DNA of 64,000 bases from contig JAUVGH010000001.1 in assembly GCA_030593885.1 (NCBI GenBank), positions 40,463 through 104,462 on the forward strand, read 5' to 3'. The stretch comes from Methanomassiliicoccales archaeon (GTDB lineage Archaea; Thermoplasmatota; Thermoplasmata; RBG-16-68-12; SOIM01). The position numbers and the translations under genes are program-made. Numbering within the stretch: the first letter of the stretch is position 1; each line of letters begins with the position of its first letter. Positions 6,374-62,999 of this stretch are shown piece after piece. A model generated the notes under the pieces. The model ran no database searches and was not told the DNA's origin. It saw only the letters and a list, made by a program, of their open reading frames with translations.

Positions 6374-6696
6374 TAGGTCGGTGATAGGCCACCGGGGTAG
6401 CCGCTCAGAACTGGCAAGAGGGAATCCCGAAACATTCTCAACCCCGCTACCCCACGAGCGTTGGTAATACGCGGTAAGGCTGCTCACTTCCGTGCCTGAC
6501 CCGATTCCCGCGATCAAGGCGGTGGCCGTGACCCTCCGGCCAAACCATCCGCCACCTCCAGCCCCGCGGGACAGGATATCATCGTTGTCCCAGGGCCTAT
6601 CACCAGGCTGGTTACGTCGTCCCCGGCTGTCAGCGCCGCCATGACGATTTCGGCTAGTAGAGGACGCCAAGCCCTCCGCTCAAGCCTACCAAGCCC
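6368..6696 (-). ncRNA. ffs: Signal recognition particle RNA (archaeal 7S RNA)
   Basis: The minus-strand read contains the helix-8 signature GGGTCAGGCACGGAAGTGAGCAGCC (~6478-6503). Compare the universal GGUCAGGUCCGGAAGGAAGCAGCC; here the GGAA tetraloop is closed by CAC/GTG. There is a helix-6-like hairpin with a GNAR loop (GGCC-GGAG-GGTC) inside GGTGGCGG..CCACCGCC. An 11-bp long-range pairing joins GGTGATAGGCC (6594-6604) to GGCCTATCACC (6380-6390). The ends pair as TGGTAGG/CCTATCA. A TATA box lies upstream and an oligo-T run lies just past the 3' end. Ends are +/- 10 nt. Confidence 0.85.
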
Positions 6697-47880: not shown

Positions 47881-48444
47881 TCACTTCGGCTGAAGGAACA
47901 TTCCCTTCTTCTCTTTCTTTATCTTCTCCCTCAGCTGGATGAAACCGTCTATTAGGGCTTCAGGCCTTACCGGGCACCCTGGTATGTAGACGTCGACTGG
48001 CACCACTTTTTCCACGCCTTCCAGTATGTTGTAGGAATCGTAGTACGGGCCTCCGCATATGGCGCACTCTCCCATGGCGATCACCCATTTAGGCTCGGGA
48101 ATCTGCTCGTACAATCTTCTTATTGACGGAGCCACCTTGCGGCTCACCGGGCCGTTAACCAGGAGGATGTCAACCTGTCTAGGTGTCGACCTGAACAAAA
48201 CTCCAAACCTCTCAATATCATACCTGGGAGAGAAAGCAGCCGCCATCTCTATGGAACAGCACATCAACCCCCAGTGCAACGGCCACAGGCTGTTCCTCCG
48301 GCTCCAGTTCCACAGCCTCTCCGTCAGGAAGTTAACGAAATCCTTCAGTCTTGTCTTCTCCATCGCCTTCCCGAAACCGTTCCCAATCCATTCCATGAGC
48401 TCTTCGGAGTTGATCCCGGCGATGCCCGTCTTCTCCTCGTTCAA
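47881..48444 (-). CDS. nuoB: NADH-quinone oxidoreductase / Fpo-like complex subunit B
   Basis: SLWPLHWGLMCCSIEM.., ..VIAMGECAICGGPY.., ..VYIPGCPVRPEAL carry the N2 cluster cysteines. The TTG start overlaps the nuoA stop (TTGA). A downstream ATG start is possible. Confidence 0.9.
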   Translation of the reverse strand: MNEEKTGIAGINSEELMEWIGNGFGKAMEKTRLKDFVNFLTERLWNWSRRNSLWPLHWGLMCCSIEMAAAFSPRYDIERFGVLFRSTPRQVDILLVNGPVSRKVAPSIRRLYEQIPEPKWVIAMGECAICGGPYYDSYNILEGVEKVVPVDVYIPGCPVRPEALIDGFIQLREKIKKEKKGMFLQPK

Positions 48445-48803
48445 ATCAAGACCTCTTTCTCTTTCTTGAGGGAGACTCCCACTGCCGTTCCGACCAGGAG
48501 GACGAAGAGGGCCACCGATGCGAGCGCCACGTAGCTCATGCTACTGTCGAACACCAGCGCCCAGAGAACAAGGAAGACGACCACGACATCAAATGCCACG
48601 AAGAGTATCGCGTACATGTAGTACTGGAAGGTGAATTGGATGTGCGCCGTCCCTATCGGGACCTCCCCGCATTCGTAGGTGGAGTCCTTCAAAGGAGTCT
48701 TCTTCGTCGGACGGAACAGTCTGTTTAGAAAATACGTTACCGGTGGAAAGATGATGCATATTACCGCGAAGATAAGTACGGGCAGATAGTCTTCCAGGAG
48801 CAT
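48441..48803 (-). CDS. nuoA: Nuo/Fpo-like complex subunit A
   Basis: 120 aa with 3 TM segments and the YECGEVPIG motif. Confidence 0.88.
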   Translation of the reverse strand: MLLEDYLPVLIFAVICIIFPPVTYFLNRLFRPTKKTPLKDSTYECGEVPIGTAHIQFTFQYYMYAILFVAFDVVVVFLVLWALVFDSSMSYVALASVALFVLLVGTAVGVSLKKEKEVLI

Positions 48804-48996: not shown

Positions 48997-49320
48997 ATGA
49001 CACAACCATGCGAGATTGACTCGCACAAAGTTCTCCCGACCATCAGGAGAGGTCTCACAAAGATATTGATGGAAGAAGCAGGGAAGAACCAGACAGAGGT
49101 CTCGGAGATTCTTGGGATAAGCCAAGCCGCGGTGAGTCATTATTTCAGTGACAAGCGAGGTGACGCAACCATCGTTGATCGACATCCCGACATCGAGAAG
49201 AAGATTCGGGCTCTGGGGGAGGATATGACCAACGGGATTTCCACCTCGGCCAGAATCGATAGAATGTGCGTCATCTGCAAGCAGCTCCGGGCCCATGTCC
49301 TAGACGAACAAGATCGTTAG
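48997..49320 (+). CDS. Small HTH (Cro/XRE-like) regulator with a C-terminal CxxC
   Basis: The HTH is NQTEVSEILGISQAAVSHYFSDKRG, and the C-terminal part contains MCVICKQL. It lies in the gap between the divergent nuoAB and nuoC-N genes. Confidence 0.65.
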   Translation: MTQPCEIDSHKVLPTIRRGLTKILMEEAGKNQTEVSEILGISQAAVSHYFSDKRGDATIVDRHPDIEKKIRALGEDMTNGISTSARIDRMCVICKQLRAHVLDEQDR

Positions 49321-49555: not shown

Positions 49556-50011
49556 GTGAGGATGAAGGGGACTGAAGTTGCGGGAGCGCTCAGGGAACAT
49601 TTCGGAGACCTGGTCAGCGACATCGTGTTCCCAAGAGAGGATCTTGTCAGGGTCTCGGTCCCCAGGGATTCCATCTTTCCGTTCTGTAAGTTCTTGAGGG
49701 ACGAGCTTCACTGCGAACACCTCAATCTTGTGTCCGCTCTTGACTGGCCCGAGAATTTTGAGTGCGTCTACCACCTCACATCATATCTCGAGGAATACAT
49801 GGTCGAGCTGCACGTCAAGGTCCCCAAGGATGACCCCAAGATCGCTTCCCTGAGCGAAATCTGGAGAGCGGCCGACTTCCCCGAGAGAGAGGCCTACGAC
49901 ATGATGGGCATCACATTCGAAGGTCATCCAGATCTCAGGCGCATTCTACTGCCAGATGATGTTGACTATTATCCGTTGAGAAAGGACTTCGAGGGTCAAT
50001 CCGATGAGTGA
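49556..50011 (+). CDS. nuoC: Nuo/Fpo-like complex subunit C
   Basis: ..IWRAADFPEREAYDMMGITFEGHPDLRRILLPDD.. Start at GTG 49556 or ATG 49562. Confidence 0.88.
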   Translation: MRMKGTEVAGALREHFGDLVSDIVFPREDLVRVSVPRDSIFPFCKFLRDELHCEHLNLVSALDWPENFECVYHLTSYLEEYMVELHVKVPKDDPKIASLSEIWRAADFPEREAYDMMGITFEGHPDLRRILLPDDVDYYPLRKDFEGQSDE

Positions 50012-51083
50012 TATGTGGATAAATATGGGTCCGCAACATCCCATGAACCATGGGCTCTGGAACCTGAAGGTGCGTGTGGATGGTGAGATCGTGGTTGAAT
50101 CCATACCCGTTCTGGGATACTTGCACAGAGGTGTGGAGAAGCTGTGCGAGAAGAGGGACTACAACCAGATAATCCCGCTGATGGACAGGCTCTGCTACGT
50201 TTCTTCCTTAACTTGGTCACATGCTTACTGCATCTCCGCCGAGGAGATGATGGGGCTCGAGATTCCAGATAGGGCGAAGTATCTCAGGGTCATAGCACTG
50301 GAACTCCAGAGGGTCGCTTCCCACCTCATGTGGCTGGCGGCCTTCGCCCCGGACCTGGGTATGTTCTCGGCATACCTGTACTCGATGAGGGAGAGGGAGC
50401 ACTTCCTTGATATGCTTCAATGGCTGACCGGCGCAAGGATGAATCAGAACTACCCCCGGATCGGCGGTGTCAGGAACGACATGCCCGCTGGGTTCCCGGA
50501 CAGGTGCATCAAGGAACTGGACTACTTCGAGAAGAAGCTGGAGCAGTACAAGCAGCTGTTTGACGATAACAAGCTCTTCCGGATGAGGACGGAGGGAGTG
50601 GGTGTCCTGAGCAAGAAGGACGCTTTGGACCTTGGCGTTACCGGACCCGCCCTGAGGGGGAGCAACTGCCCGATCGACATGAGGACGCACGACCCCTACG
50701 AGGTATACGGCGAGCTGGACTGGGAGGTTCAGGTGGGGAAGGGAGGTGACGTCTTCTCGCGCTATGCCGTGAGAATGGGAGAGATGAGGGAGAGCTGCAG
50801 GATAATTCGTGACGCCCTCAAGAAGATCCCCGATGGCCCGGTGAGGGTCAAGGCTCCCTTGAGACCAACTGGACAAGGCTTCAGAAGGACCGAGGACTCC
50901 CGGGGAGAGGCGCTGATATACGTCGTCGGTCAAGGCGAGGAGTCCCCGTACAGGCTGAAGATCAGAAGCCCCATATTCGCCATCATGAGGGCGTTGCCAG
51001 TAATGTTGAAAGGCACCTCGATTGCCGACCTGCTCGCGATAATGGGAAGCGTGGATATTTGCATAGGAGACACTGACAAATGA
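50004..51083 (+). CDS. nuoD: Nuo/Fpo-like complex subunit D
   Basis: MGPQHPMNHGLWNLKVRVDGEIV.., ..GYLHRGVEKL.., C-terminus ..MGSVDICIGDTDK. Overlaps nuoC by 8 nt. Confidence 0.9.
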   Translation: MSDMWINMGPQHPMNHGLWNLKVRVDGEIVVESIPVLGYLHRGVEKLCEKRDYNQIIPLMDRLCYVSSLTWSHAYCISAEEMMGLEIPDRAKYLRVIALELQRVASHLMWLAAFAPDLGMFSAYLYSMREREHFLDMLQWLTGARMNQNYPRIGGVRNDMPAGFPDRCIKELDYFEKKLEQYKQLFDDNKLFRMRTEGVGVLSKKDALDLGVTGPALRGSNCPIDMRTHDPYEVYGELDWEVQVGKGGDVFSRYAVRMGEMRESCRIIRDALKKIPDGPVRVKAPLRPTGQGFRRTEDSRGEALIYVVGQGEESPYRLKIRSPIFAIMRALPVMLKGTSIADLLAIMGSVDICIGDTDK

Positions 51084-52222
51084 GCTCGTGGATAAACCTG
51101 TACAACATCAGCTACGCGATCGGCGAGTTCCTGATGGGTATAGTAGCAGCCATCCTCAACTTCTTCGGTCAGTGGATCGGTCCTCTTTCTGATTTCGCCG
51201 ACTGGCTGATGTCTGTCAACGTGCTGAACCTTGTTGCCATACTCATTGGTGGAGTGGTGGTGATGGTCTTTGTTTCCATAATCAACCTCTTCATCATCAT
51301 GTGGATCGAGAGGAAGATGTACGGCAGGATCCACGACCGCCGTGGCATCATGCTTCCAGGACCGTGGAAGAAGACCCACAAGGGCACCGGATTCCTGCAG
51401 AACCTGGCCGACGGTATGAAGCTCATTCAGAAAGAGCTGATCGTCCCGAAGAACGCGGACAAGTGGATGTACGACATTGCACCGGCCATAATCGCCACCA
51501 CCTCGATACTGGCCTTCGTTGCCATTCCTTTCAGCGAGACGTTCTATGTCGCCAACATCAACGGCGGTCTCATATTCATTCTGGCAATATTGGCCATCGC
51601 ACCCTTCGCGGTCGTGCTGGCTGGCTGGTCCAGTAATAACAAGTTCACTCTGATTGGCGGATTGCGCGGTGCGGCATTGATGTTGAGCTACGAGATCCCG
51701 CTGATTCTGTCCGTCATCGGCGTCATACTCCTTTCCGGCTCTCTGAATCCCATTGAGATAGTGCAGGCCCAGCAGCAGACATCGGTCCTTGGCGTTGAGA
51801 ACTGGTACATCATTCCCCTGTTCCCTGCCGTTATCGTGTTCATGGTGGCTCTGTTCGCGGAGCTTGAAAGGCTGCCCTTCGACCTCCCCGAGGCTGAGGC
51901 CGAGCTCGTTGAGGGCTGGCTCACCGAATACTCAGGGATGAGGTTCGGACTGGTTTTTGTGTCCAAGTGGGTTAGGACATACGCGGGGGCGGCATTGATT
52001 ACGATATTATTCTTAGGTGGCTGGTCCGGCCCTGTGTTGCCAGGAGAGCTGTGGTTCATCATCAAATCCTACATCGTCTTCGTCATCATCGTTTGGGCGA
52101 CCTGGTCCTTCCCGAGGTCACGTATCGATCAGATCGTGAGGATCGGCTGGAACTGGTTGATCCCCATCGCCATAATCTCTATTGTGATCGCGGCTGCTTT
52201 CAAATGGGTGGGGTGGTTCTGA
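51080..52222 (+). CDS. nuoH: Nuo/Fpo-like complex subunit H
   Basis: ..ERLPFDLPEAEAELVEGWLTEYSGMRFGLVF..LFLGGW.. ATGA overlap with nuoD. Confidence 0.9.
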   Translation: MSSWINLYNISYAIGEFLMGIVAAILNFFGQWIGPLSDFADWLMSVNVLNLVAILIGGVVVMVFVSIINLFIIMWIERKMYGRIHDRRGIMLPGPWKKTHKGTGFLQNLADGMKLIQKELIVPKNADKWMYDIAPAIIATTSILAFVAIPFSETFYVANINGGLIFILAILAIAPFAVVLAGWSSNNKFTLIGGLRGAALMLSYEIPLILSVIGVILLSGSLNPIEIVQAQQQTSVLGVENWYIIPLFPAVIVFMVALFAELERLPFDLPEAEAELVEGWLTEYSGMRFGLVFVSKWVRTYAGAALITILFLGGWSGPVLPGELWFIIKSYIVFVIIVWATWSFPRSRIDQIVRIGWNWLIPIAIISIVIAAAFKWVGWF

Positions 52223-52929
52223 TGGCCAAGAAGAAGAGAGGTTTCAAGGGATGGATCATCCAGCCCATGAGGTTCACAGCACGTGAGTTGCGTGGTGCCC
52301 TGCTCAAACCGTCCACCATCCTCTATCCCCTTGAGAAGGAGAGGGACAAATGGGAAGCTCTGCGGGAGAACTTCCGCGGTCATCACGAGATCGATTGGCT
52401 GAAATGCATCGGCTGCAGGCTGTGTTCCAGGGTGTGCCCCAACCAGTGCATCACTATGGAGGACATCGAGGTCGACGAGAAGTACAAGGGACCACGCCGA
52501 TCCCACATGTCGGAAAGAAAGAAGATCATTCACCGACCCGGCGTGGACATTGGAAGATGCCTATTCTGCGGGAACTGCGGCGAGTACTGCCCCACCGATG
52601 CCTGGACCCAGACCATATTGGTCGAACTCACAACTTTCGAGAGGGAAGCATTGGTCTATTCCGCCGAGCAGGTCAAGACCGAAGGAGAACCCAGCAAGAA
52701 GCTCGTAAACAAGATACTGGAGAATCCCAAGCTGGATGTGGAGACCTGCATCGGATGCAAGCGTTGCTTCAACGAGTGTCCTACCCAGTGCATTACCATG
52801 ATCCCAGGGCCCAAGATGAGGAAGGACAAGCCGATCGAGATCCCGGAATTCGACTACTCGAAGTGCATCGGATGCAGCACATGTTGCGATGTCTGCAAGC
52901 CTGAATCGCTGACAATGGAGGAGATCTGA
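52222..52929 (+). CDS. nuoI: Nuo/Fpo-like complex subunit I, extended form with four [4Fe-4S]-type motifs
   Basis: ATG 52222 overlaps the nuoH TGA by 1 nt (TGATG) and gives MAKKKRGFKG.. Motifs: CIGCRLCSRVCP, CLFCGNCGEYCP, CIGCKRCFNECP, CIGCSTCCDVCKP. Confidence 0.88.
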   Translation: MAKKKRGFKGWIIQPMRFTARELRGALLKPSTILYPLEKERDKWEALRENFRGHHEIDWLKCIGCRLCSRVCPNQCITMEDIEVDEKYKGPRRSHMSERKKIIHRPGVDIGRCLFCGNCGEYCPTDAWTQTILVELTTFEREALVYSAEQVKTEGEPSKKLVNKILENPKLDVETCIGCKRCFNECPTQCITMIPGPKMRKDKPIEIPEFDYSKCIGCSTCCDVCKPESLTMEEI

Positions 52930-53202
52930 ATGGTTGAATGGGACCTTGTGATGTTCATTACGCTTTCCGTCGTTGAGATTGTCGCCAGCATCTTGGTCGT
53001 CACATCAAAGAAGCTCGTTCACAGCGCATTCTGGCTGGCTATTACCCTGATCACCATGGGTGGAATCTACATACTTCTGCGGTCCGAGTTCGTGGCCGTT
53101 GTCCAGATCCTTGTTTATGCGGGTGCGGTGCCCGTGCTGTTCGTCTTCGGCATCGTTCTCACTAGAAGGCGAATCATGGAGGAGCCAGATGAAGGAGAAT
53201 AG
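52930..53202 (+). CDS. nuoJ: Nuo/Fpo-like complex subunit J, N-terminal part (split J)
   Basis: 90 aa with 3 TM segments (..AVVQILVYAGAVPVLFVFGI..). A stop at 53200-53202 separates it from the following part. Confidence 0.8.
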   Translation: MVEWDLVMFITLSVVEIVASILVVTSKKLVHSAFWLAITLITMGGIYILLRSEFVAVVQILVYAGAVPVLFVFGIVLTRRRIMEEPDEGE

Positions 53203-53437
53203 TGAGGCAACGTTGGTCATAGTGGTGACGGCCGCCGTCCTTCTAGGCTACATGATGGCTTTGTCCCTGATCTCTTCAGAAGCATGGGAGACGACCGATA
53301 TCAACGAGGTCCCTATGGAAGATGTGGCCCACTCCCTGTTTGACGATTACTCGTTCGCTTTGGTCATCCTCGGTATGCTGCTGTCCGCTTCTGTGCTGGG
53401 CGGCATCTACCTGGCGAGGAAGGAGGTGAAGGATTGA
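53189..53437 (+). CDS. nuoJ: Nuo/Fpo-like complex subunit J, C-terminal part (split J)
   Basis: ATG 53189 gives MKENSEATLVIVVTAAVLLGYMM..FALVILGMLLSASVLGGIYLARKE. It overlaps the first J part by 14 nt. As I recall, the Methanosarcina fpo operon is written fpoABCDHIJJKLMNO, i.e. with J in two genes. Confidence 0.75.
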   Translation: MKENSEATLVIVVTAAVLLGYMMALSLISSEAWETTDINEVPMEDVAHSLFDDYSFALVILGMLLSASVLGGIYLARKEVKD

Positions 53438-53745
53438 TAGCCCTCGAATATGAGCTGGTCCTTTCGGCCGTCCTGTTCGCCATTGGCATCTACGGCATCC
53501 TGAGGAGGAAGAACGCCATCGTCGTGCTGATGTCCGTGGAGATAATCCTGAACGCAGCCGTGATGAACTTCGTGGCATTCTCGTCCTACGCCGAGAACGG
53601 TGGGAATGCTGCCGGCCAGGTCTTCGCCCTGTTCGCCATTGCGGTTGCCGCTGCTGAGGCGGCTATAGGACTTGCGATGTTCATCGTCTTCTACCGGACG
53701 TTCAACACGATCGATCTGGACAAAGGGAAGATGCTGAGGTGGTAA
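53434..53745 (+). CDS. nuoK: Nuo/Fpo-like complex subunit K
   Basis: TTG start. ..LFAIGIYGILRRKNAIVVLMSVEIILNA..AAAEAAIGLA.. Confidence 0.88.
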   Translation: MIALEYELVLSAVLFAIGIYGILRRKNAIVVLMSVEIILNAAVMNFVAFSSYAENGGNAAGQVFALFAIAVAAAEAAIGLAMFIVFYRTFNTIDLDKGKMLRW

Positions 53746-53785: not shown

Positions 53786-55753
53786 GTGGCGTTCCTCTTA
53801 TCCATACTGTTCGGCAAGAAGGTGTGGGAGGGTGGTGCGCCTTTCACCATTGGTGCTATCGGGTTCTCGTTTGTCGTTTCCCTTTATCTGTTCATCGACG
53901 TCCTGGGTCAGGGTGCTTTGGGCGGCGGAGTGCAAGTAGAGATCATCGCGTTCGAGTGGATACCCGGCATCGAGATCGGACTGCTGATAGACAACCTCAG
54001 CGCATTATTGCTCCTGCTGGTCTCTTTCCTGTGTCTTCTGATAGCCATCTATTCGGCGGGTTACATGCACGATGAGGATGGGAAGCCCCGCTACTATGCC
54101 GAGATAGCCCTCTTCACCGCTGGAATGCTTGGAACCGTCAGCGCTAACAACTTCTTCCAGCTGCTGATCTTCTGGGAGGTAATGGGCGTCTGTTCATACC
54201 TTCTCATCGGATTCTGGTACAAGAAGCCCGAGGCGGCCAGTGCCGCGAAGAAGGCGTTTCTGGTCACCAGGATCGGGGACATCCTGTTCTTGATTGGCAT
54301 CATCGTTCTCTTCGTCACGTTCAACACATTCAACATACTGGAGATCCAGGAGAGCGCAGATCAGATACCCGTTCACTTGGTTGCGATTGTGCCTTTGCTG
54401 CTGTTTGGCGGGGCCGTCGGCAAATCCGCTCAGTTCCCGTTACACGTATGGCTGCCGGATGCCATGGAAGGTCCCACTACGGTGAGTGCTCTCATTCACG
54501 CAGCGACGATGGTCAAGGCCGGGGTCTACCTCACAGCTCGCAGCTTCCCTCTGATCGCTAATTCGCCAGATGCTACATTAGTTGTTGCCGTCATCGGCGG
54601 CTTCACGGCCTTCTTTGCCGCCACCATGGCCCTGGTTGCGATGGACATCAAACGGGTTCTTGCATATTCCACCATCAGCCAGATAGGCTACATGATGCTC
54701 GGATTAGGCGCGGGTGCGTACCTGTACCACCACGGACATGAGGCTCTGGGCTACACCTTTGCCATCTTCCACCTGGTAAATCATGCATTCTTCAAGGCCT
54801 TATTGTTCCTGGGTAGCGGTAGCGTTATTCACTCGGTCGGCACCAACGACATGCGGCAAATGGGAGGCCTTCACAAACACATGAAGATAACCTCGTTCAC
54901 AATGCTCATAGGTGCTCTCTCCATCGCCGGCATTCCACCATTAAGCGGGTTCTGGAGCAAGGATGGTATTCTTGAAGTCGCATTCGAAGCAGGAATGAAT
55001 GACCCCTCCTTCCTCATCATCTGGATACTCGGCATCATCACCGCGTTCATGACCGCATTCTACATGTTCAGGCTGTGGTTCTTCACCTTCACTGGAGAGA
55101 AAAGATCGCCCGGCGAGCCTCACAAATCCCCCAAATCCATGACAATTCCGCTGATTATCCTCGCTGCGTTCGCACTCATATCCGGGATCCTCACCTTCTT
55201 CATGGACGGGTTCGGTCAGCTGGTTTTCTTTGAGCAGGCGCATGGACACGCCGTGGAGGAGATCATCCACGTGTTCACCAATCCGTTGACCTTCCTCTCC
55301 ATCGGCATGGCCGGTCTGGGTATCGGGCTTGCATACTTGATTTACAGTAAGCGAAGCATCTCGTCAAACGTTTTCGTCTCATCCAAGGGAACGAAGGCCA
55401 TCCACAACATGCTCGTGAAGAGATACGGAATGGACTGGGCCTACAGGATGTTCGGACTGAAGATCGCCTATGGGTTCGCCAAGGTCGCGGACTTCTTCGA
55501 CCGAAAGGTCATCGACGGTGTTGTGAACGGAACCGCCAAAGGCGGTTTGCTTGTGGGCAAGGCTAGCGGGTTCTTCGACCAGAAGGGGATAGACGGCGCA
55601 GTCAACGGAATCAGTCGTGGGATCGTGGGAGGCGGCAGAAGTCTCAGGAGGAGCCAAACCGGGAACATACAGGGTTACCTGGCGGCTGTCGTGCTCGGCA
55701 TATGCTTCGTGATCGCCTTCGCCTGGATCTACATCAAGATTACGGGAGGATAG
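53786..55753 (+). CDS. nuoL: Nuo/Fpo-like complex subunit L (antiporter-like, with a duplicated C-terminal repeat)
   Basis: LLIFWEVMGVCSYLLIGFW, HAATMVKAGVYL, and a C-terminal amphipathic region followed by the last TM. The first canonical start is GTG 53786, but the open frame continues upstream with NuoL-like sequence (YEYAWLIIISPL), so the true start may be non-canonical near 53747. Confidence 0.88.
   Translation: MAFLLSILFGKKVWEGGAPFTIGAIGFSFVVSLYLFIDVLGQGALGGGVQVEIIAFEWIPGIEIGLLIDNLSALLLLLVSFLCLLIAIYSAGYMHDEDGKPRYYAEIALFTAGMLGTVSANNFFQLLIFWEVMGVCSYLLIGFWYKKPEAASAAKKAFLVTRIGDILFLIGIIVLFVTFNTFNILEIQESADQIPVHLVAIVPLLLFGGAVGKSAQFPLHVWLPDAMEGPTTVSALIHAATMVKAGVYLTARSFPLIANSPDATLVVAVIGGFTAFFAATMALVAMDIKRVLAYSTISQIGYMMLGLGAGAYLYHHGHEALGYTFAIFHLVNHAFFKALLFLGSGSVIHSVGTNDMRQMGGLHKHMKITSFTMLIGALSIAGIPPLSGFWSKDGILEVAFEAGMNDPSFLIIWILGIITAFMTAFYMFRLWFFTFTGEKRSPGEPHKSPKSMTIPLIILAAFALISGILTFFMDGFGQLVFFEQAHGHAVEEIIHVFTNPLTFLSIGMAGLGIGLAYLIYSKRSISSNVFVSSKGTKAIHNMLVKRYGMDWAYRMFGLKIAYGFAKVADFFDRKVIDGVVNGTAKGGLLVGKASGFFDQKGIDGAVNGISRGIVGGGRSLRRSQTGNIQGYLAAVVLGICFVIAFAWIYIKITGG
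55493..55648 (+). repeat. In-frame tandem duplication (2 x 78 nt = 2 x 26 codons) in the C-terminal region of nuoL
   Basis: Copy 1 (55493-55570) encodes FFDRKVIDGVVNGTAKGGLLVGKASG. Copy 2 (55571-55648) encodes FFDQKGIDGAVNGISRGIVGGGRSLR. Both begin with the identical ttcttcgacc. Confidence 0.8.
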
Positions 55754-55754
55754 A

Positions 55755-57281
55755 ATGGACGTGCCTTTGCTTTCCCTGATGTTGGTCATCCCACTGGTCG
55801 GGACGGTTATCACATTCCTTCTCCCCAGGGACAGCACCAAGGCGAAGTGGATATGTCTCATCGCATCGCTGGCTAACCTCATCGTCTCGTTCATTCTGGT
55901 CTTTGCTTATGTCTGGGAGGTACCCTTTGCTCTCGTCGGAGATCCTGTCACTGGCAGTTTCAAGGCGTATGAGAACGCTGACTGGGTGCCAACTCTGGGC
56001 ATGAGCTACACCCTGGGCGTTGACGGGCTTTCTATTCCACTTATCCTGCTCACTCATCTTCTGGTGGCTTTGGGGATAGTCTTCTCATGGAAGGAAGGGA
56101 AGAGGACCAAGGAGTTCTTCGCTCTGTTGCTCCTGATGGACCTGGCGATCACCGGAGTCTTCGTCTCGCTGGACCTTTTCCTCTTCTTCATCTTCTGGGA
56201 GTTTGTGCTGATACCCATGTACTTCCTCATCGGGATATGGGGGGGCCCGAACAAACACTATGCCGCGATCAAGTTCCTCATCTACACCCACGTGGGCAGC
56301 ATCATAATGTTGCTGGGAATATTCGCCTTGTACTTCACAGCGTCCCCCGCCCTCACTGGTGGGAACACCTTCAACCTGATCGTGCTCGCCAACGAGGCCG
56401 GGCAGGACCCGACATATCTGGGCGCTGCATTCCAAATGCCGGTCTTCATTGCCATGTTCTTCGGATTCGGGGTCAAGATGCCCATGGTGCCGTTCCACAC
56501 CTGGCTCCCTGATGCTCACGTCGAGGCCCCGACCGCTGGTTCGGTCATACTTGCCGGCCTGCTGCTGAAGATGGGCGGTTACGGGTTGTTCCGAGTTGGA
56601 TTGACCATGTTCCCGTTAGCTGCCGTTGAACTGTGGTGGGTCCTCGCTTCGTTCGGGATCGTGAGCATGGTGTACGCCGCGTTCGTGTGTTTAGCTCAGA
56701 CGGACCTGAAGAGATTGATAGCATATTCCAGCGTGAGCCATATGGGATTCGTTCTGCTGGGGGCCGCCAGCCTTTCGACCATCGGTATCATGGGCGGCAT
56801 ATACCAGATGTTCACCCATGGGCTGATAACCGCAGTGTTGTTCATGTTGGCCGGGGTCGCCAAAAGGGCCTGTCACACGAGGGAAATACCAAAGCTCACA
56901 GGTCTCATCAATAAGATGCCCAAGTTCTCCCTGATACTCATGCTGGGCTTCTTCGCCTCCTTAGGACTTCCGGGGCTGGCATCCTTCGTCAGCGAGTTCA
57001 TGGTCTTCGTGGGGGCGTTCGGGACCTTCGGGAAGTATCTCATCATTCCCTTGCTGGCCATCATCATTACGGGGGCTTACTACATCTGGACGATGCACAA
57101 GGTCTTATTCGGGAAGTTCAACGAATCCTTAGGTAAGGTGAGGGACCTGACCAGGTATGAACTGATTCCTCTTGCCATACTCATCTTCTTCATCATATTC
57201 TTCGGATTGTACCCGGCTCCGGTGGTGCAGTTCATCGAACCTTATGCCGAGGGGCTGTCAACATTATTGGGAGGTATCTGA
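55755..57281 (+). CDS. nuoM: Nuo/Fpo-like complex subunit M, copy 1
   Basis: FFIFWEFVLIPMYFLIGIWGGPNKHYAAIKF, HTWLPDAHVEAPTAGSVILAGLLLKMGGYGL. Confidence 0.9.
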   Translation: MDVPLLSLMLVIPLVGTVITFLLPRDSTKAKWICLIASLANLIVSFILVFAYVWEVPFALVGDPVTGSFKAYENADWVPTLGMSYTLGVDGLSIPLILLTHLLVALGIVFSWKEGKRTKEFFALLLLMDLAITGVFVSLDLFLFFIFWEFVLIPMYFLIGIWGGPNKHYAAIKFLIYTHVGSIIMLLGIFALYFTASPALTGGNTFNLIVLANEAGQDPTYLGAAFQMPVFIAMFFGFGVKMPMVPFHTWLPDAHVEAPTAGSVILAGLLLKMGGYGLFRVGLTMFPLAAVELWWVLASFGIVSMVYAAFVCLAQTDLKRLIAYSSVSHMGFVLLGAASLSTIGIMGGIYQMFTHGLITAVLFMLAGVAKRACHTREIPKLTGLINKMPKFSLILMLGFFASLGLPGLASFVSEFMVFVGAFGTFGKYLIIPLLAIIITGAYYIWTMHKVLFGKFNESLGKVRDLTRYELIPLAILIFFIIFFGLYPAPVVQFIEPYAEGLSTLLGGI

Positions 57282-57284
57282 TAA

Positions 57285-58766
57285 ATGGCGCTTGAGATCC
57301 ACCTGATATCGCTCATCCTCGTCTTCCCGATAGTCGGCGCGTTGCTGACCTACATCCTCCCGCTCAAGAACAGGGACACGAAGATAGTGGCCGTGGTCAT
57401 GTCCATCATACCCCTGATACTGTCCACGATGCTCATTCTGGGCGTTCTAACTGACTTCGTCGATCTTACCCAGGAAGGCGATTTCTTTGCGGTCGAGAAG
57501 GCTGAATGGATACCCCAGGTGGGCATAAACTACCACATCGGTGCGGACGCCCTTTCTGCAGTACTGGTATTCCTGACATCTCTTTTGGTCACACTGGCAC
57601 TGATTCATTCTTGGGATGAGACCCATCGCCACAGGGAATTCAACGCGATGCTGCTGTTCATGCAAACCACAATCATCGGGGTGTTCGTCTCTCTCGATTC
57701 CTTCCTCTTCTTCATGTTCTGGGAGGTCGGTCTTGTACCGATGTACTTCCTGATCGCCATCTGGGGCGGTCCCAACAAGAAGTATGCGGCCATCAAGTTC
57801 TTCCTGTTCACTCAAGCGGCCAGCATTTTGGTGCTGATAGGGATCTTCGCGTTCTGGTTCTCCTCCGACCCGCACACGTTCAGCATGGTCGCTTTCATCG
57901 AGAACAATCCGATAGGAGCTGCTTCTCAGGACCTGCTGTTCATCGTCATGATGTTCGGGTTCGGAACCAAGTTACCCATGGTGCCAGTGCATACGTGGTT
58001 ACCTGATGCGCATGTCGAAGCGCCTACCGCTGGGTCTGTACTTCTTGCCGGCGTTTTGCTGAAGATGGGCGGCTACGGTCTCATTAGGTTCAACGTCCAG
58101 ATGTTCGATTCGGTGTCCGACTGGGTCTGGGTGATGTTCGGTGCCATTGGTGTAATAAGCATGGTGTACGGCGCGTTCGTCTGCCTCGCTCAGGACGACC
58201 TGAAGAGGATGATCGCCTTCTCCAGCATCAGCCACATGGGCATAGTGATGTTGGGGATATCAACCTGGGCTTTGGGCGGAAGCCAAATCGGAATGGCGGG
58301 CGCGATATTCCAGCTGTTTGCACACGGCCTCATCTCAGCGGCGTTGTTCATGATCGCAGGTTCTGTTGGACACAACCTTGGAACCAGGAACATATCTGAG
58401 TTAGGGGGGATTGCTCCAAAGGTTCCAAAGACAGCAGGGTTCATGATGGTGGCGTTCCTGGCGTCTTTAGGCTTACCTGGTCTGGTAGGGTTCGTAGCGG
58501 AGCTGAGCGTCTTCGTGGGAACCTGGGAGGCGTTCGGCCTGTGGATATTCTTCCCGATAATCTCTATCGCATTGACGGCTGGATACTACCTCTTCGCCAT
58601 GCAAAGGGCCATCTTCGGTCCGTACAATGAGACGTTGGAGGATCCAAAGGACCTCAGGACCTTCGAGACCGTTCCGTTGGCCGTGCTGACATTCACATTC
58701 GTCCTCTTCGGCATCCTTCCGATTCTGCTCATGGATAAGATATTCGAGTGGGTGGCCGCCTTATGA
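57285..58766 (+). CDS. nuoM: Nuo/Fpo-like complex subunit M, copy 2 (tandem paralog)
   Basis: FFMFWEVGLVPMYFLIAIWGGPNKKYAAIKF, HTWLPDAHVEAPTAGSVLLAGVLLKMGGYGL. Confidence 0.9.
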   Translation: MALEIHLISLILVFPIVGALLTYILPLKNRDTKIVAVVMSIIPLILSTMLILGVLTDFVDLTQEGDFFAVEKAEWIPQVGINYHIGADALSAVLVFLTSLLVTLALIHSWDETHRHREFNAMLLFMQTTIIGVFVSLDSFLFFMFWEVGLVPMYFLIAIWGGPNKKYAAIKFFLFTQAASILVLIGIFAFWFSSDPHTFSMVAFIENNPIGAASQDLLFIVMMFGFGTKLPMVPVHTWLPDAHVEAPTAGSVLLAGVLLKMGGYGLIRFNVQMFDSVSDWVWVMFGAIGVISMVYGAFVCLAQDDLKRMIAFSSISHMGIVMLGISTWALGGSQIGMAGAIFQLFAHGLISAALFMIAGSVGHNLGTRNISELGGIAPKVPKTAGFMMVAFLASLGLPGLVGFVAELSVFVGTWEAFGLWIFFPIISIALTAGYYLFAMQRAIFGPYNETLEDPKDLRTFETVPLAVLTFTFVLFGILPILLMDKIFEWVAAL

Positions 58767-60295
58767 CCTACTCAGTTCTGTCCCCGATATTCATCCTCCT
58801 GGCGTTCTCCTTTGCGATAATGATCTTGAGCGTCTTCGTGAAGAGCCAGCGGAGATACTTCGCCTACATGACGCTTGTCGGGTTGATAGTTGCGCTGTTC
58901 TTGGTCTTGGACATGGCGGGACTTTCTTTCACGAGCGCGATGGGTCTGGATCTTTGGTCTGCCCCCGTTGACGTGTACTTCTCGGATCTGAAGATCAAGG
59001 TGGATTCGTTCTCTCTGTTCCTGTACATGATATTCATCTTCGTTGGGATCCTGGTCACGATCGGGTCCATCTCGTACATCGATAAGGAGGAGAAATACAG
59101 GGCGGAATACTTCTCTTTGATGCTGCTGGCCTTGGTCGGCATGATGCTCATTGCATCTGCGACGGATTTGTTCGTGTTATATCTCTCGTTCGAGTTAGCT
59201 AGCATTTCCACATATGCCTTGGCGGCGTTCCAGAGGAAGGACAAGGCATCCGCGGAGGCTGGATTGAAGTTCTTCTTGATGGGTGCGGTTTCGTCTGCGA
59301 TCGCTCTGTTCGGCATCTCGATCATCTATGGTGTAACGGCATTTGCAGGTGGAGCTACCACCGACCTCGCTGGGATCTCTGATGCGCTGGCCGTTGGCCT
59401 GACCATGGAAGGAATGACCATCCCGATTATCTTGGGGATTGTTCTTCTGATCGCTGGCTTTGGATTCAAGATAGCAGTGGTCCCGTTCCATATGTGGGCG
59501 CCCGACGTTTATCAAGGCAGTCCCACGACGATATCTGCCCTCCTTGCAGCTGGTTCGAAGAAAGGCGGTTTCGCGGCGTTCTTCAAGATATTCCTGTTAG
59601 GGCTGATCGCAGCCAGAATGGAATGGGTGTTCCTTGTCGCGGTCCTCGCAGTTGTCACCATGGTGGTTGGTAATGTTTTAGCGATTGTCCAGACCGACCT
59701 GAAGAGGATGTTGGCATATTCCAGCATTGCGCATGCGGGTTACATTCTAATCGCCGTTTGCGTAGGCACGTTGGCGGCGGACCCGGCGACTCTCAGTATC
59801 GCCCAATACGGTCTTGCTGGCGGTCTTTACCACATGCTTACCCACGCTTTGATGACGGGCGGGGCGTTCTTGGTCGTTGCTTTGACCGCGATGGCGAAGA
59901 TAGGTGACAATCTCAATGACTACAAAGGACTGTACAAACGGATGCCTATTGTCGCGTTCTGCATGATGGTGCTACTTCTGGCGCTGGCCGGTATTCCACC
60001 GTTGGGAGGATTCTTCAGCAAGTTCGTTCTGTTCTCTTCTGCGGTGAACGCCGGGGATTGGTTCGTCTGGTTGGCGGTCGCCGGTGTGTTGAACAGTGCT
60101 ATCTCCTTGTACTATTACGCCCGGGTGATCAAGTACATGTACATACTGGAAGGACCGGACGAGACGAAGGTGAAGGCACCAACTGGTCTTTACATCGCTG
60201 TGATACTCGCGACGGTTGGGATCGTGATCACTGGTCTACTTGCAGAGCCAATAATCAGGTTCGCTCAGGATGCGGCGGCTGCCTTGCTCGGTTAG
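58763..60295 (+). CDS. nuoN: Nuo/Fpo-like complex subunit N
   Basis: ATG 58763 forms an ATGA overlap with the nuoM2 stop; the track uses GTG 58748. ..LYLSFELASISTYALA.., ..PFHMWAPDVYQGSPT.., ..KRMLAYSSIAHAGY.. Confidence 0.9.
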   Translation: MTYSVLSPIFILLAFSFAIMILSVFVKSQRRYFAYMTLVGLIVALFLVLDMAGLSFTSAMGLDLWSAPVDVYFSDLKIKVDSFSLFLYMIFIFVGILVTIGSISYIDKEEKYRAEYFSLMLLALVGMMLIASATDLFVLYLSFELASISTYALAAFQRKDKASAEAGLKFFLMGAVSSAIALFGISIIYGVTAFAGGATTDLAGISDALAVGLTMEGMTIPIILGIVLLIAGFGFKIAVVPFHMWAPDVYQGSPTTISALLAAGSKKGGFAAFFKIFLLGLIAARMEWVFLVAVLAVVTMVVGNVLAIVQTDLKRMLAYSSIAHAGYILIAVCVGTLAADPATLSIAQYGLAGGLYHMLTHALMTGGAFLVVALTAMAKIGDNLNDYKGLYKRMPIVAFCMMVLLLALAGIPPLGGFFSKFVLFSSAVNAGDWFVWLAVAGVLNSAISLYYYARVIKYMYILEGPDETKVKAPTGLYIAVILATVGIVITGLLAEPIIRFAQDAAAALLG

Positions 60296-60349: not shown

Positions 60350-60438
60350 GGGCCTGTGGTCTAGTGGCCTATGACGTCACCCTTACAATCTCCGGATGAG
60401 AAAGGTGAATATCGGCGGTTCAAATCCGCCCAGGCCCA
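60350..60438 (+). tRNA. tRNA-Val (anticodon TAC) with a ~15-nt intron at the canonical 37/38 position
   Basis: Hand fold, in order:
- acceptor stem GGGCCTG/CAGGCCC with discriminator A
- D arm GTCT-AGTGGCCTA-TGAC
- anticodon stem TCACC/GGTGA, interrupted after CTTACA(A) by ATCTCCGGATGAGAA (~60388-60402); anticodon TAC at 60384-60386
- variable loop ATATC
- T arm GGCGG-TTCAAAT-CCGCC
No encoded CCA. Confidence 0.85.
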
Positions 60439-60551: not shown

Positions 60552-62999
60552 TTGGACGTTGGAACAGGGATTGAGCCTTCACAGGAGAAGCCTCCACCGC
60601 ATCCAAACCGAAAGTTCATGTACGGTCTTGGAGGTCTTGTCGCAGGGCTTGTCGCAGTGACTCTCATTCTATCTGTCGTATTGTCTCCGTTAGTCCCGGG
60701 ACCAAAGGAAGACAAAGGAGAAGACATTGGAGAGGCCACCATGTATTGGTCTCTCGACACGGAACTTCCCAACATAGGCGCAGGAGATCCGATCAAGCAC
60801 AACATCGCATTTCGGGTTAAGGCCGCAGGCGCTCAGGCTCTAGTATCCGACAGGATTTACGTTCCGTCCGGAAACAAGCTCTTGGCGCTCAGATCCTCAG
60901 ATGGCCAACCCGCGTGGTATGTGGGCTCCGGGCAAATCCCTGCCCCTTACTTTGAGACCGCATCCGAGATCAGTGCAGACCCGATATCGGTCAATCTCGG
61001 CAATCAATACGATCCCCACGATTCAGAATTCATGGTTTACGTAGGAACAAACGATGGAACGGTGTACTTCATCCGCGAGTCTCAGGAGATTCACCCGATA
61101 CAAATGACCTCGCCGTTTCCCGAAGATGTCATCGAAGTTCTTGGACAGGGTTCCATAACCTCGCTGGCGGTTTACACCGACGCATCATATGGAAATCACC
61201 CATCTGAGAGAGTCTTCTTCGGCACATCCGATGGATGGTTGTACGCATATCCCGCTGAGATCGACTTCGTCTCCCGAAATGACGATACCTGGTTCTATGA
61301 TTTTGCCAGTGATGAATGGGTAAAGGGCTCTTCCGATGAAAACCCCTTCAGGAGGATTGGCCATTCTCTGGTTTATGATTCTGCCAGAGACCGAGTCCTA
61401 CTCTTTGGTGGCGAAGGATCTGGCACGAACACAGAGATGTGGTTTCTCGATCCAGCTTCGAATTGGAGGACAGTGGAAGCCCCTTTCGATACTGTCCCCA
61501 TCCCAGTGGACAATCCAGCCGCAGTCTATTATGAGGCAACTGATTCCATTCTCCTTTTCGGAGGAGAGAGCGCTCTTGGCGACAGCTATCAACCTCTTAT
61601 GTTGAACCTCACTCTAATGGAATTGGTACGCCTCTCACCCAGTCCCCCGCCATCGGGAAGACACGGTCATCAGATGGTATACAACTCTCAAGATCACATC
61701 GCCTTCCTATTTGGGGGGTTCAGTAACACTCCGTCCTCGGATTTCACCAAACTTTACAGCATGGATAATGATACTTGGTGGCTGTCGGATGCTCCTGACC
61801 CAGACCGGAGGTTCGATCATTCTATGACTTATGATTCCAGCAATAATAGAGCGGTTCTTTTTGGCGGCTCGGACGAGAGCCAACTGTTCAACGACACCTG
61901 GGTGTACAATTTCCAGAATTACTCTTGGGATCAGATAATCACCGATCCCTCCCCTTCAGCTAGAAAGAACCATTCCATGGCGTTTGATCCCTCGTCCGGT
62001 TCCGTGCTCTTGTTCGGTGGTGAGGGCGACGCTAGCCGATATGACGACACATGGATCTTCGATGTCTCGACTCAAGAATGGCAGAAGATGAATCCCTCCA
62101 CAACGCCCTCCGCAAGGTTTGGACACAGTATCACCGTGGATGAATCTACAGGCAAAGCCGTTCTTTTCGGTGGGGACGATGGAATATCTGGCGAGATCTG
62201 GAAGCGAAAACTGGGGAACTCACCAATCAGAATGGCCGGAGTCCCACTCGAATCCCCGACCGACCCGAACTTCTCCCCCGCGGTAAACAACAATGGAACC
62301 ATCCTTGTTGTCAATGTTGGGAGTCTCCGAGCAGTGTGGACGCAGAATGGCTTGGATGCATGGGGTGAACGGTCGGACGCCCCTCACATACAATCCGGCG
62401 CAGTGAACATCGGTGGGAACTGGAGCTCCGAGCCTGCTATAATCCCCCCAAGTATGTACGAGGGTCAATTCCTCGATCTGACACTTGTCGGATCCGGGGA
62501 TGGTTGGCTTTATGCTTTCTCGACCTGGGACGGAACCGTTCTCAACCATTGGAAGAGAATGGGGAAGCTGAATCCCGACACCTACATCCACGGAATTCAC
62601 CTGAGAAAAATGTCAGGCAAATATGATGATGGCGCTCTCGGTAGACCCGTGGCGTTTGGAGACTGGATCTTTGTCAGCTCCGCATCTAAATTGGTCTACT
62701 GCTTGAATGTTGGCGAGTCTGAGTTCGGCAAGATTGTCTGGAAAGTGGACACATTCGGGGCGGTCTCTGGCAACATTTACTTTGTCCGCCAGCAAAGGGC
62801 GCTTCATTTTGTCGACCAAACGGGCAGGCTTTACGGTATAACGGATGATGGCACGATTGTTTACAGGGTGTTTCTCGGAACCACTGTATCAAGCGGAGTC
62901 TCGGTTTGGAAAGACAATGATAGTTCTCGTCCCACGCCAGCGGTGTGGGTTGGGGGCGATGATGGATTGATCCATAGCTATTCTTCTCCACCCTATTGA
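60552..62999 (+). CDS. TM-anchored Kelch/PQQ-like beta-propeller ectodomain protein, paralog of the OppC-like permease insertion
   Basis: TTG 60552, or ATG 60618 giving MYGLGGLVAGLVAVTLILSVVL (TM). Six Kelch-like blades (RRIGHSLVYDSARDRVLLFGG, GRHGHQMVYNSQDHIAFLFGG, RRFDHSMTYDSSNNRAVLFGG, ARKNHSMAFDPSSGSVLLFGG, ARFGHSITVDESTGKAVLFGG and others). Collinear motif matches to 37069-39600. Confidence 0.85.
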   Translation: MDVGTGIEPSQEKPPPHPNRKFMYGLGGLVAGLVAVTLILSVVLSPLVPGPKEDKGEDIGEATMYWSLDTELPNIGAGDPIKHNIAFRVKAAGAQALVSDRIYVPSGNKLLALRSSDGQPAWYVGSGQIPAPYFETASEISADPISVNLGNQYDPHDSEFMVYVGTNDGTVYFIRESQEIHPIQMTSPFPEDVIEVLGQGSITSLAVYTDASYGNHPSERVFFGTSDGWLYAYPAEIDFVSRNDDTWFYDFASDEWVKGSSDENPFRRIGHSLVYDSARDRVLLFGGEGSGTNTEMWFLDPASNWRTVEAPFDTVPIPVDNPAAVYYEATDSILLFGGESALGDSYQPLMLNLTLMELVRLSPSPPPSGRHGHQMVYNSQDHIAFLFGGFSNTPSSDFTKLYSMDNDTWWLSDAPDPDRRFDHSMTYDSSNNRAVLFGGSDESQLFNDTWVYNFQNYSWDQIITDPSPSARKNHSMAFDPSSGSVLLFGGEGDASRYDDTWIFDVSTQEWQKMNPSTTPSARFGHSITVDESTGKAVLFGGDDGISGEIWKRKLGNSPIRMAGVPLESPTDPNFSPAVNNNGTILVVNVGSLRAVWTQNGLDAWGERSDAPHIQSGAVNIGGNWSSEPAIIPPSMYEGQFLDLTLVGSGDGWLYAFSTWDGTVLNHWKRMGKLNPDTYIHGIHLRKMSGKYDDGALGRPVAFGDWIFVSSASKLVYCLNVGESEFGKIVWKVDTFGAVSGNIYFVRQQRALHFVDQTGRLYGITDDGTIVYRVFLGTTVSSGVSVWKDNDSSRPTPAVWVGGDDGLIHSYSSPPY

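Follow-up and report, generated by a model that had tools for sequence, protein, structure and literature searches.

The question raised by this locus is whether an archaeal complex I has acquired an additional proton-pumping subunit together with a longer helix to hold it in place. The window, which is the whole analyzed stretch of 64,000 nucleotides (nt) from a Methanomassiliicoccales archaeon (contig JAUVGH010000001.1, positions 40,463 to 104,462 of the forward strand), contains, between 47.9 and 60.3 kb, a complex I gene set that is complete apart from nuoE, nuoF, and nuoG; all positions below are those of the window unless a locus is named. The genes are arranged as B and A, which are divergent, and then C, D, H, I, J (split), K, L, M1, M2, and N. 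A '2M' form of complex I, with a second nuoM and an insertion in a NuoL helix, was reportedly described by Chadwick et al. in 2018 and proposed to pump an extra proton. An earlier sequence-only reading of the window had linked the locus to that work and to an insertion of about 26 amino acids (aa), and this was corroborated by papers citing it, in which 2M is defined by two nuoM genes in one cluster together with a NuoL that is lengthened by a ~26-aa insertion in the lateral helix HL (PMC6606698, PMC9040806). The window operon is a further instance of this published type, since both a second nuoM and a lengthened NuoL are present: as that reading had proposed, two nuoM genes lie between nuoL and nuoN, and HL is longer by 26 residues than in one-nuoM relatives. 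The product of the region is probably a complex I membrane arm of the 2M type, with no NuoEFG in the operon, and once assembled it would be a four-pump complex with a lengthened HL strap.

The two NuoM copies and the NuoL repeat

The tandem nuoM pair consisted of two complete open reading frames (ORFs) on the forward strand, nuoM1 at 55755-57281 (508 aa) and nuoM2 at 57285-58766 (493 aa), exactly at the coordinates first assigned to them. Pfam analysis revealed the Proton_antipo_M domain in both (E 1.7e-75 and 5.7e-73, respectively). In phmmer comparisons with the E. coli subunits NuoL, NuoM, and NuoN, both copies scored by far the highest against NuoM, and the best PDB matches of NuoM1 were NuoM/ND4 chains. 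Over 491 aa, the identity between the two proteins was 48%. When both were aligned with E. coli NuoM, residues E144, K234, K265, E407, H241, H248, H322, and H348 (E. coli numbering) were the same in all three sequences. Every E. coli NuoM channel residue that was checked is therefore kept, and the search for a missing Lys or Glu found all examined residues in both copies. The initial impression that both genes are functional was upheld by this alignment; both NuoM copies look functional and neither looks degenerate.

The preceding gene, nuoL (53786-55753, forward strand), encodes a 655-aa protein with a lengthened lateral helix, in which the Pfam domains Proton_antipo_N (PF00662) and Proton_antipo_M (PF00361) could be identified and whose best PDB matches were NdhF/Nqo12/NuoL. 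Its C-terminal part contains two copies of one module on the forward strand: module A at 55493-55570 (aa 570-595, FFDRKVIDGVVNGTAKGGLLVGKASG) and module B at 55571-55648 (aa 596-621, FFDQKGIDGAVNGISRGIVGGGRSLR), the latter followed by a conserved RxxQTG..Y motif and transmembrane helix 16 (TM16). As had been claimed, the repeat is in frame with a period of exactly 78 nt. The identity between the modules was 45/78 nt (58%) and 12/26 aa, with 10/14 identical positions in the repeat core FFDxKxIDGxVNG. When NuoL was shuffled 200 times, the highest count of identities in a 14-mer self-match was 9, seen once, and 10 was never reached. Tandem Repeats Finder, run on nuoL at a score of 30, did not call the 78-nt repeat; for this reason, it is regarded as a diverged, old, protein-level repeat and not as a recent DNA repeat.

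The position of the repeat within the protein was assessed by structure prediction. In the AlphaFold2 (AF2) model of NuoL, with a mean predicted local distance difference test (pLDDT) score of 78.6, TM15 covered residues 500-521, a long helix covered 546-601, and TM16 covered 628-653, so that module A falls inside the continuous helix 546-601. Foldseek analysis of this model placed NdhF/NuoL/ND5 chains on top with TM-scores of 0.72-0.78. Pfam, AF2, and Foldseek together revealed the architecture of the NuoL/ND5/NdhF family, namely an antiporter-like core of 14 TM helices, TM15, the lateral helix, and TM16. In established NuoL architecture, HL is the sole element between TM15 and TM16. Because both modules lie between these two helices, the duplication maps to HL, and the check for a mapping outside it was negative, in agreement with the assignment originally made to the lateral helix. 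In the alignment with E. coli NuoL, D598 of the window protein corresponds to K561, two residues before D563. The span from TM15 to TM16 was 111 aa in the window NuoL, compared with 82 in E. coli and 82-92 in the nearest one-nuoM archaeal relatives.

Age and distribution of the duplications among close relatives

Both modules, at a spacing of exactly 26, could be observed in 120/120 of the best NuoL homologues (55-97% identity, Thermoplasmata). The closest of these (up to 97% identity) came from metagenome-assembled genomes (MAGs) named Thermoplasmata archaeon or Methanomassiliicoccales archaeon. With the archaeal signal recognition particle RNA of the window, which confirms an archaeal origin, they place the source among the uncultured Thermoplasmata archaea. 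Over the 14-residue core, modules A and B matched at 8.97 positions within a protein versus 8.61 between proteins, a comparison that is confounded by relatedness. The gene order L-M1-M2-N was present at all readable loci of the clade (the window, L002, L003, L009, L090, and L092), and L091 fits the same order, with nuoN cut by the contig end. Orthologues of M1 and M2 occurred in constant order at L002, L003, L009, L090, L091, and L092.

Outside the clade, the nearest NuoLs by core-domain distance all had the short helix, and the alignment of short-helix relatives revealed an exact 26-aa gap where the window NuoL has one module. The nearest short-helix archaeal relatives whose context was read, L004 (a Thermoplasmata MAG), L088, and L089, were all arranged as L-M-N. 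No intermediate was found in the archaeal neighbourhood: the sampled long-HL members of the clade were all 2M, and the near outgroups were all short-HL with one nuoM. Judged from this distribution, the HL duplication and the nuoM duplication then go together in this lineage, and both date to the base of the clade. The expectation that one-nuoM relatives lack the 26-aa repeat thus held for the close relatives L004, L088, and L089, and failed for distant lineages, with at least 13 operons to the contrary. Likewise, the proposal that the insertion arose by tandem duplication stands inasmuch as the motif-bearing module is repeated; the event was, however, ancient and clade-wide, with nothing special to the window.

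The copies are adjacent, in frame, and separated by an exact 78-nt period, as might be expected if the duplications were recent or were an assembly artefact, for example from the collapse or expansion of a repeat. This explanation is scarcely credible, as the modules share only 58% of their nucleotides and drew no Tandem Repeats Finder call, M1 and M2 share less than half of their residues, and the repeat and the nuoM pair recur in independent assemblies from NCBI, JGI, ENA, and Logan. A recent tandem repeat at the DNA level was also considered as a candidate and could be ruled out by the 45/78 nt identity, the missing call, and the presence of both modules in all 120 homologues down to 55% identity.

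Another explanation is that only one of M1 and M2 occupies a single NuoM position at a time, the two being alternative isoforms swapped for example with conditions, in which case the complex would stay three-pump and HL length would be unrelated to the number of NuoM subunits. The many one-nuoM operons in which HL is longer by 26 or 52 residues (+26 and +52, see below) agree with it, as HL extension must there have a role without an adjacent second nuoM. We nevertheless consider it unlikely. Across the clade, in which NuoL identity falls to 55%, M1 and M2 have each remained an orthologous group of their own, and the order L-M1-M2-N is constant. Moreover, the genes abut or overlap, suggesting co-translation: the L-M1 gap is 1 nt, the M1-M2 gap is 3 nt, and the nuoN ATG overlaps the nuoM2 stop (ATGA).

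Lateral helix length and nuoM number across prokaryotes

The relation of helix length to nuoM number was evaluated in a broad sample, which consisted of the bacterial and archaeal nuoL loci among the matches listed in a genome scan; the counts in this section refer to those listed matches. The span was measured in 226 NuoLs from the conserved Tyr ending TM15 (Y520) to the conserved Tyr starting TM16 (Y631, window numbering). These alignment anchors were used in place of hydropathy, which delimited TM15 too noisily. The span measure also catches degenerate module copies, for example those of Nitrospira, which are overlooked by a regular-expression count of modules. Numbers of nuoM were taken from operons legible through to nuoN.

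The spans were quantized, with peaks at 82-86, 108-114, and 135-139 residues, and by their lengths these peaks correspond to one, two, or three 26-residue modules. In the earlier reading, the motif occurs once per NuoL. This is true of the solved NuoL/NdhF structures, where it is single and at the equivalent place, but not of the broad prokaryotic sample, in which it was double in ~40% and triple in a few. Operons with a short, one-module HL had one nuoM in 36 cases and two nuoM in 0; those with a two-module (+26) HL had one nuoM in 13 cases and two in 8; and the three-module (+52) class consisted of 2 operons with one nuoM and 0 with two. Two nuoM genes were therefore present in 0/36 short-helix versus 8/23 long-helix operons (Fisher p = 2e-4, without phylogenetic correction), a pattern that swapping between NuoM isoforms does not predict. 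The two-nuoM +26 operons include Nitrospira (L012, L019) and Bacillota (L015). In the Bacillota MAG (L015, 9818-16155), the order was nuoL-M-N-M, with the second nuoM after nuoN, and the two-module HL had a span of 109.

From these counts, 2M operons seem to require a longer HL, although its presence is neither sufficient nor diagnostic. The +26 helix with one nuoM could be seen in Ignavibacteria/Melioribacter, Planctomycetes, Acidobacteria, NC10, Zixibacteria, Actinomycetota, and Njordarchaeales. At twelve loci with the +26 helix (L006, L010, L011, L018, L030, L038, L042, L056, L064, L078, L079, and L087), only nuoM and nuoN were found within 10 kb on either side. Of these loci, L018 belongs to Melioribacter sp. 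OK-6-Me, and L010, L056, and L038 come from Ignavibacteria, Planctomycetota, and Terriglobia MAGs. The Njordarchaeales complex I cluster among them (L087, 4784-7474) had fused nuoA-nuoB and fused nuoC-nuoD, and adjoins the hydrogenase maturation genes hypA, hypD, and hypF. Two NuoLs, P0303 (L085, 9006-11057) and P0306 (L086, 1027-3150), carried three HL modules with a span of 135 aa in ordinary one-nuoM L-M-N operons. The nuoM of L085 was unusually short (419 aa), and in L086 an ATP synthase operon directly follows the complex I operon.

A rough neighbour-joining tree on p-distances gave ~30 parsimony changes of helix class, a figure that indicates recurrence only and is no estimate. In the same tree, archaeal NuoLs with a short helix surrounded the window NuoL clade. 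In the archaeal pair, M1 and M2 resembled one another, and also the single NuoMs of archaea, more than they did the Nitrospira M1/M2, which is consistent with an independent origin of the archaeal and Nitrospira 2M operons. Tandem duplication of the same module appears to be a recurrent route to a longer HL, because the added segment of Nitrospira also sits exactly 26 residues past the first motif.

The order of events may also have been different, with HL lengthening first, as a neutral or otherwise selected pre-adaptation, and the second NuoM inserted later, so that the duplications would be sequential and not coupled. One-nuoM operons with a long HL are widespread and occur at scattered points of the rough NuoL tree, which indicates that the state with two modules and one NuoM is viable, and every 2M operon listed belongs to the long-HL class. 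Against this, the archaeal neighbourhood of the window held no intermediate, and such a history is possible but somewhat doubtful. It concerns history only and is compatible with the four-pump mechanism. Tentatively, HL could be pictured as a modular 'ruler' in which 1-3 copies of a 26-residue unit (FDxxVIDGxVN and a linker) are strung together, their number having been altered on repeated occasions by in-frame tandem duplication or by deletion. Pumps could then be added only to complexes with a lengthened ruler, and the long-HL operons with one nuoM might belong to cryptic complexes whose further antiporter-like subunit is encoded at another locus, or might reflect a second function of the extended helix.

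Comparison with known systems revealed several relatives of the window operon. According to published accounts, 2M complex I has already been reported from Ca. Angelarchaeales (Thermoplasmata), Nitrososphaerales, Nitrospira, Acidobacterium, and others (PMC9038741, PMC7300363, PMC6606698). The complexes of Ca. Angelarchaeales and the ammonia-oxidizing Nitrososphaerales ('clade 2' of Chadwick et al. 2018 per PMC7300363) resemble that of the window in being archaeal and without NuoE/F/G, with a duplicated M; one more proton has been proposed for them, with ferredoxin possibly serving as donor (Diamond et al. 2022, PMC9038741). In contrast to the account given here, those papers do not, in the portions available, call the NuoL insertion a tandem copy of the FDxxVIDGxVN module (PMC9038741, PMC7300363). 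The Nitrospira 2M ('clade 3' of Chadwick et al. 2018; N. moscoviensis CI_1, PMC6606698) shares the L-M-M-N order and a TM15-TM16 span of 109-111 residues (L012, L019), as well as the 26-residue offset of the added segment. Unlike that of the window, its second module is degenerate (TEKHVIYGGLNV), with no clear FD..IDG.VN copy; its NuoL is ~41% identical to the window NuoL, and its M1/M2 are not close to the archaeal pair.

Complex_I_3 of Ca. Manganitrophus, as described by Yu et al. 2022 (PMC9040806), likewise combines a 26-aa insertion in the C-terminal amphipathic helix with extra pumping subunits. It differs in being bacterial, in having the helix borne by MrpD2 and not by NuoL, and in having five pumping subunits. 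That Manganitrophus complexes with a single NuoM can carry a similar HL insertion in NuoL has already been remarked by the same authors. Canonical complex I (E. coli NuoL/M/N, 3RKO; T. thermophilus Nqo12-14, 4HE8) shares the subunit folds, the channel residues, and the TM15-HL-TM16 architecture, whereas it has one NuoM, a span of 82 residues, a single module, and NuoEFG. Over the papers citing Chadwick et al. 2018, the present results would be incremental in three respects: the insertion is recognizable as a tandem copy of the motif-bearing HL module, HL length is quantized in 26-residue units across prokaryotes, and its extension is common without an adjacent second nuoM. In published work, the HL insertion is cited in support of the incorporation of the second NuoM into the complex. 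Given the one-nuoM operons with the same insertion, it should be taken as necessary but not sufficient evidence, and the one-nuoM, long-helix complexes merit structural study.

Proposed mechanism and operon layout

In the four-pump mechanism that we favour, L, M1, M2, and N would be four antiporter-like subunits lined up in the membrane. In canonical complex I, HL straps L to M and N. Here it would be one 26-residue module longer (26 x 1.5 Å, ~39 Å if module B is helical), and with both NuoM copies incorporated it could reach across the extra NuoM to its TM16 anchor. The additional module presumably came from an in-frame tandem duplication of the HL segment bearing FDxxVIDGxVN. By analogy with the proposal for 2M complexes, one additional proton might be pumped per reaction cycle, five instead of four, which would be useful when the donor has a low potential, as ferredoxin does, or when electron flow is reversed. 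An annotation as high-stoichiometry 2M complex I bears on energy conservation from low-potential donors in uncultured Thermoplasmata.

Several observations weigh against this mechanism. One nuoM accompanies the +26 helix in at least 13 operons and the +52 helix in two more, and, because such helices occur with a single nuoM, a longer HL alone is no proof of a bound fourth pump. The suggested equivalence of one extra module with one extra NuoM was accordingly sustained in part: the extra length is exactly one module and the rule holds in this lineage, while it is not general. In addition, the pLDDT of the single-chain AF2 model was below 50 at residues 591-629, which include most of module B. 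The modules are Gly-rich (6-7 of 26 residues), and their helical hydrophobic moment compared with shuffles gave p-values between 0.02 and 0.33. Finally, the literature searched contained neither a solved structure nor a measured stoichiometry for a 2M complex.

Concerning the electron-input side, no nuoEFG-like or fpoF-like genes were found by Pfam in the operon or the flanks examined. The nuoI gene (52222-52929, forward strand) is a long form with Fer4-family matches in two separate regions; its probable start is the ATG at 52222 (MAKKKRGF...), while the mechanical ORF runs from 52051. Its translation contained four CxxCxxCxxxC motifs compared with two in canonical NuoI, which points to an additional ferredoxin-like domain (2x[4Fe-4S]) where electrons enter the complex. 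The relative L002 also has a long NuoI, of 240 aa. A donor other than NADH, such as ferredoxin, would fit an operon without NuoEFG and a NuoI with four Cys-cluster motifs.

The remaining genes of the operon could be assigned by Pfam as follows. On the complementary strand, divergent from the main operon, lie nuoB (20-kDa subunit, 47881-48444; Oxidored_q6, E 1.9e-30) and nuoA (48441-48803; Oxidored_q4, E 3.3e-23). A small gene for an HTH_3-type regulator (48997-49320, forward strand) is located between this divergent pair and nuoC. The forward strand then carries nuoC (30-kDa subunit, 49556-50011; Complex1_30kDa, E 5.2e-41), nuoD (49-kDa subunit, 50004-51083; Complex1_49kDa, E 1.5e-84), and nuoH (51080-52222; NADHdh, E 8.3e-105). 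Downstream of nuoI, nuoJ is present as two short overlapping ORFs (52930-53202 and ~53189-53437, forward strand), the first with the N-terminal half of Oxidored_q3 (positions 2-68) and the second with its C-terminal half (73-146). It is followed on the same strand by nuoK (53434-53745; Oxidored_q2, E 9.8e-28). After the L-M1-M2 block, nuoN (58763-60295, forward strand; mechanical ORF from GTG 58748) contained Proton_antipo_M and had NuoN as its best phmmer reference. The cluster is not of the Mrp type: NuoA, B, C, D, H, I, J, and K all surround L, M, M, and N, and in the PDB comparison MrpA and MrpD chains scored well under NuoL/NuoM chains.

Some of these peculiarities are shared by relatives. 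The divergent position of A/B with respect to C-N was also seen in the close relative L002. In other clade members (L003, L090, and L092), unlike the window and L002, nuoA was co-directional and nuoB was absent from the cluster. The split of nuoJ recurred in L002, L003, L088, L090, and L092; it is therefore a conserved feature and no frameshift error. Among the short-helix relatives, a Fer4_20/Pyr_redox_2 protein (GltD-like, NAD(P)H-binding) was observed at two loci. In L089 (2133-4289), it is fused at the NuoI position to give a protein of 718 aa, while in L088 (1-1214) a large protein of this kind lies directly upstream of nuoA. It is possible that these proteins are an alternative electron-input module.

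Further features could be found around the operon. Directly past nuoN, at 60350-60438, Rfam revealed a tRNA match (56 bits, 89 nt) where ARAGORN reports none; it may be an intron-containing archaeal tRNA. Directly downstream of the nuo operon, 60552-62999 encodes an 815-aa protein with an N-terminal hydrophobic segment and Kelch and PQQ-like beta-propeller repeats. An archaeal signal recognition particle RNA was located at 6382-6691 on the complementary strand (179 bits).

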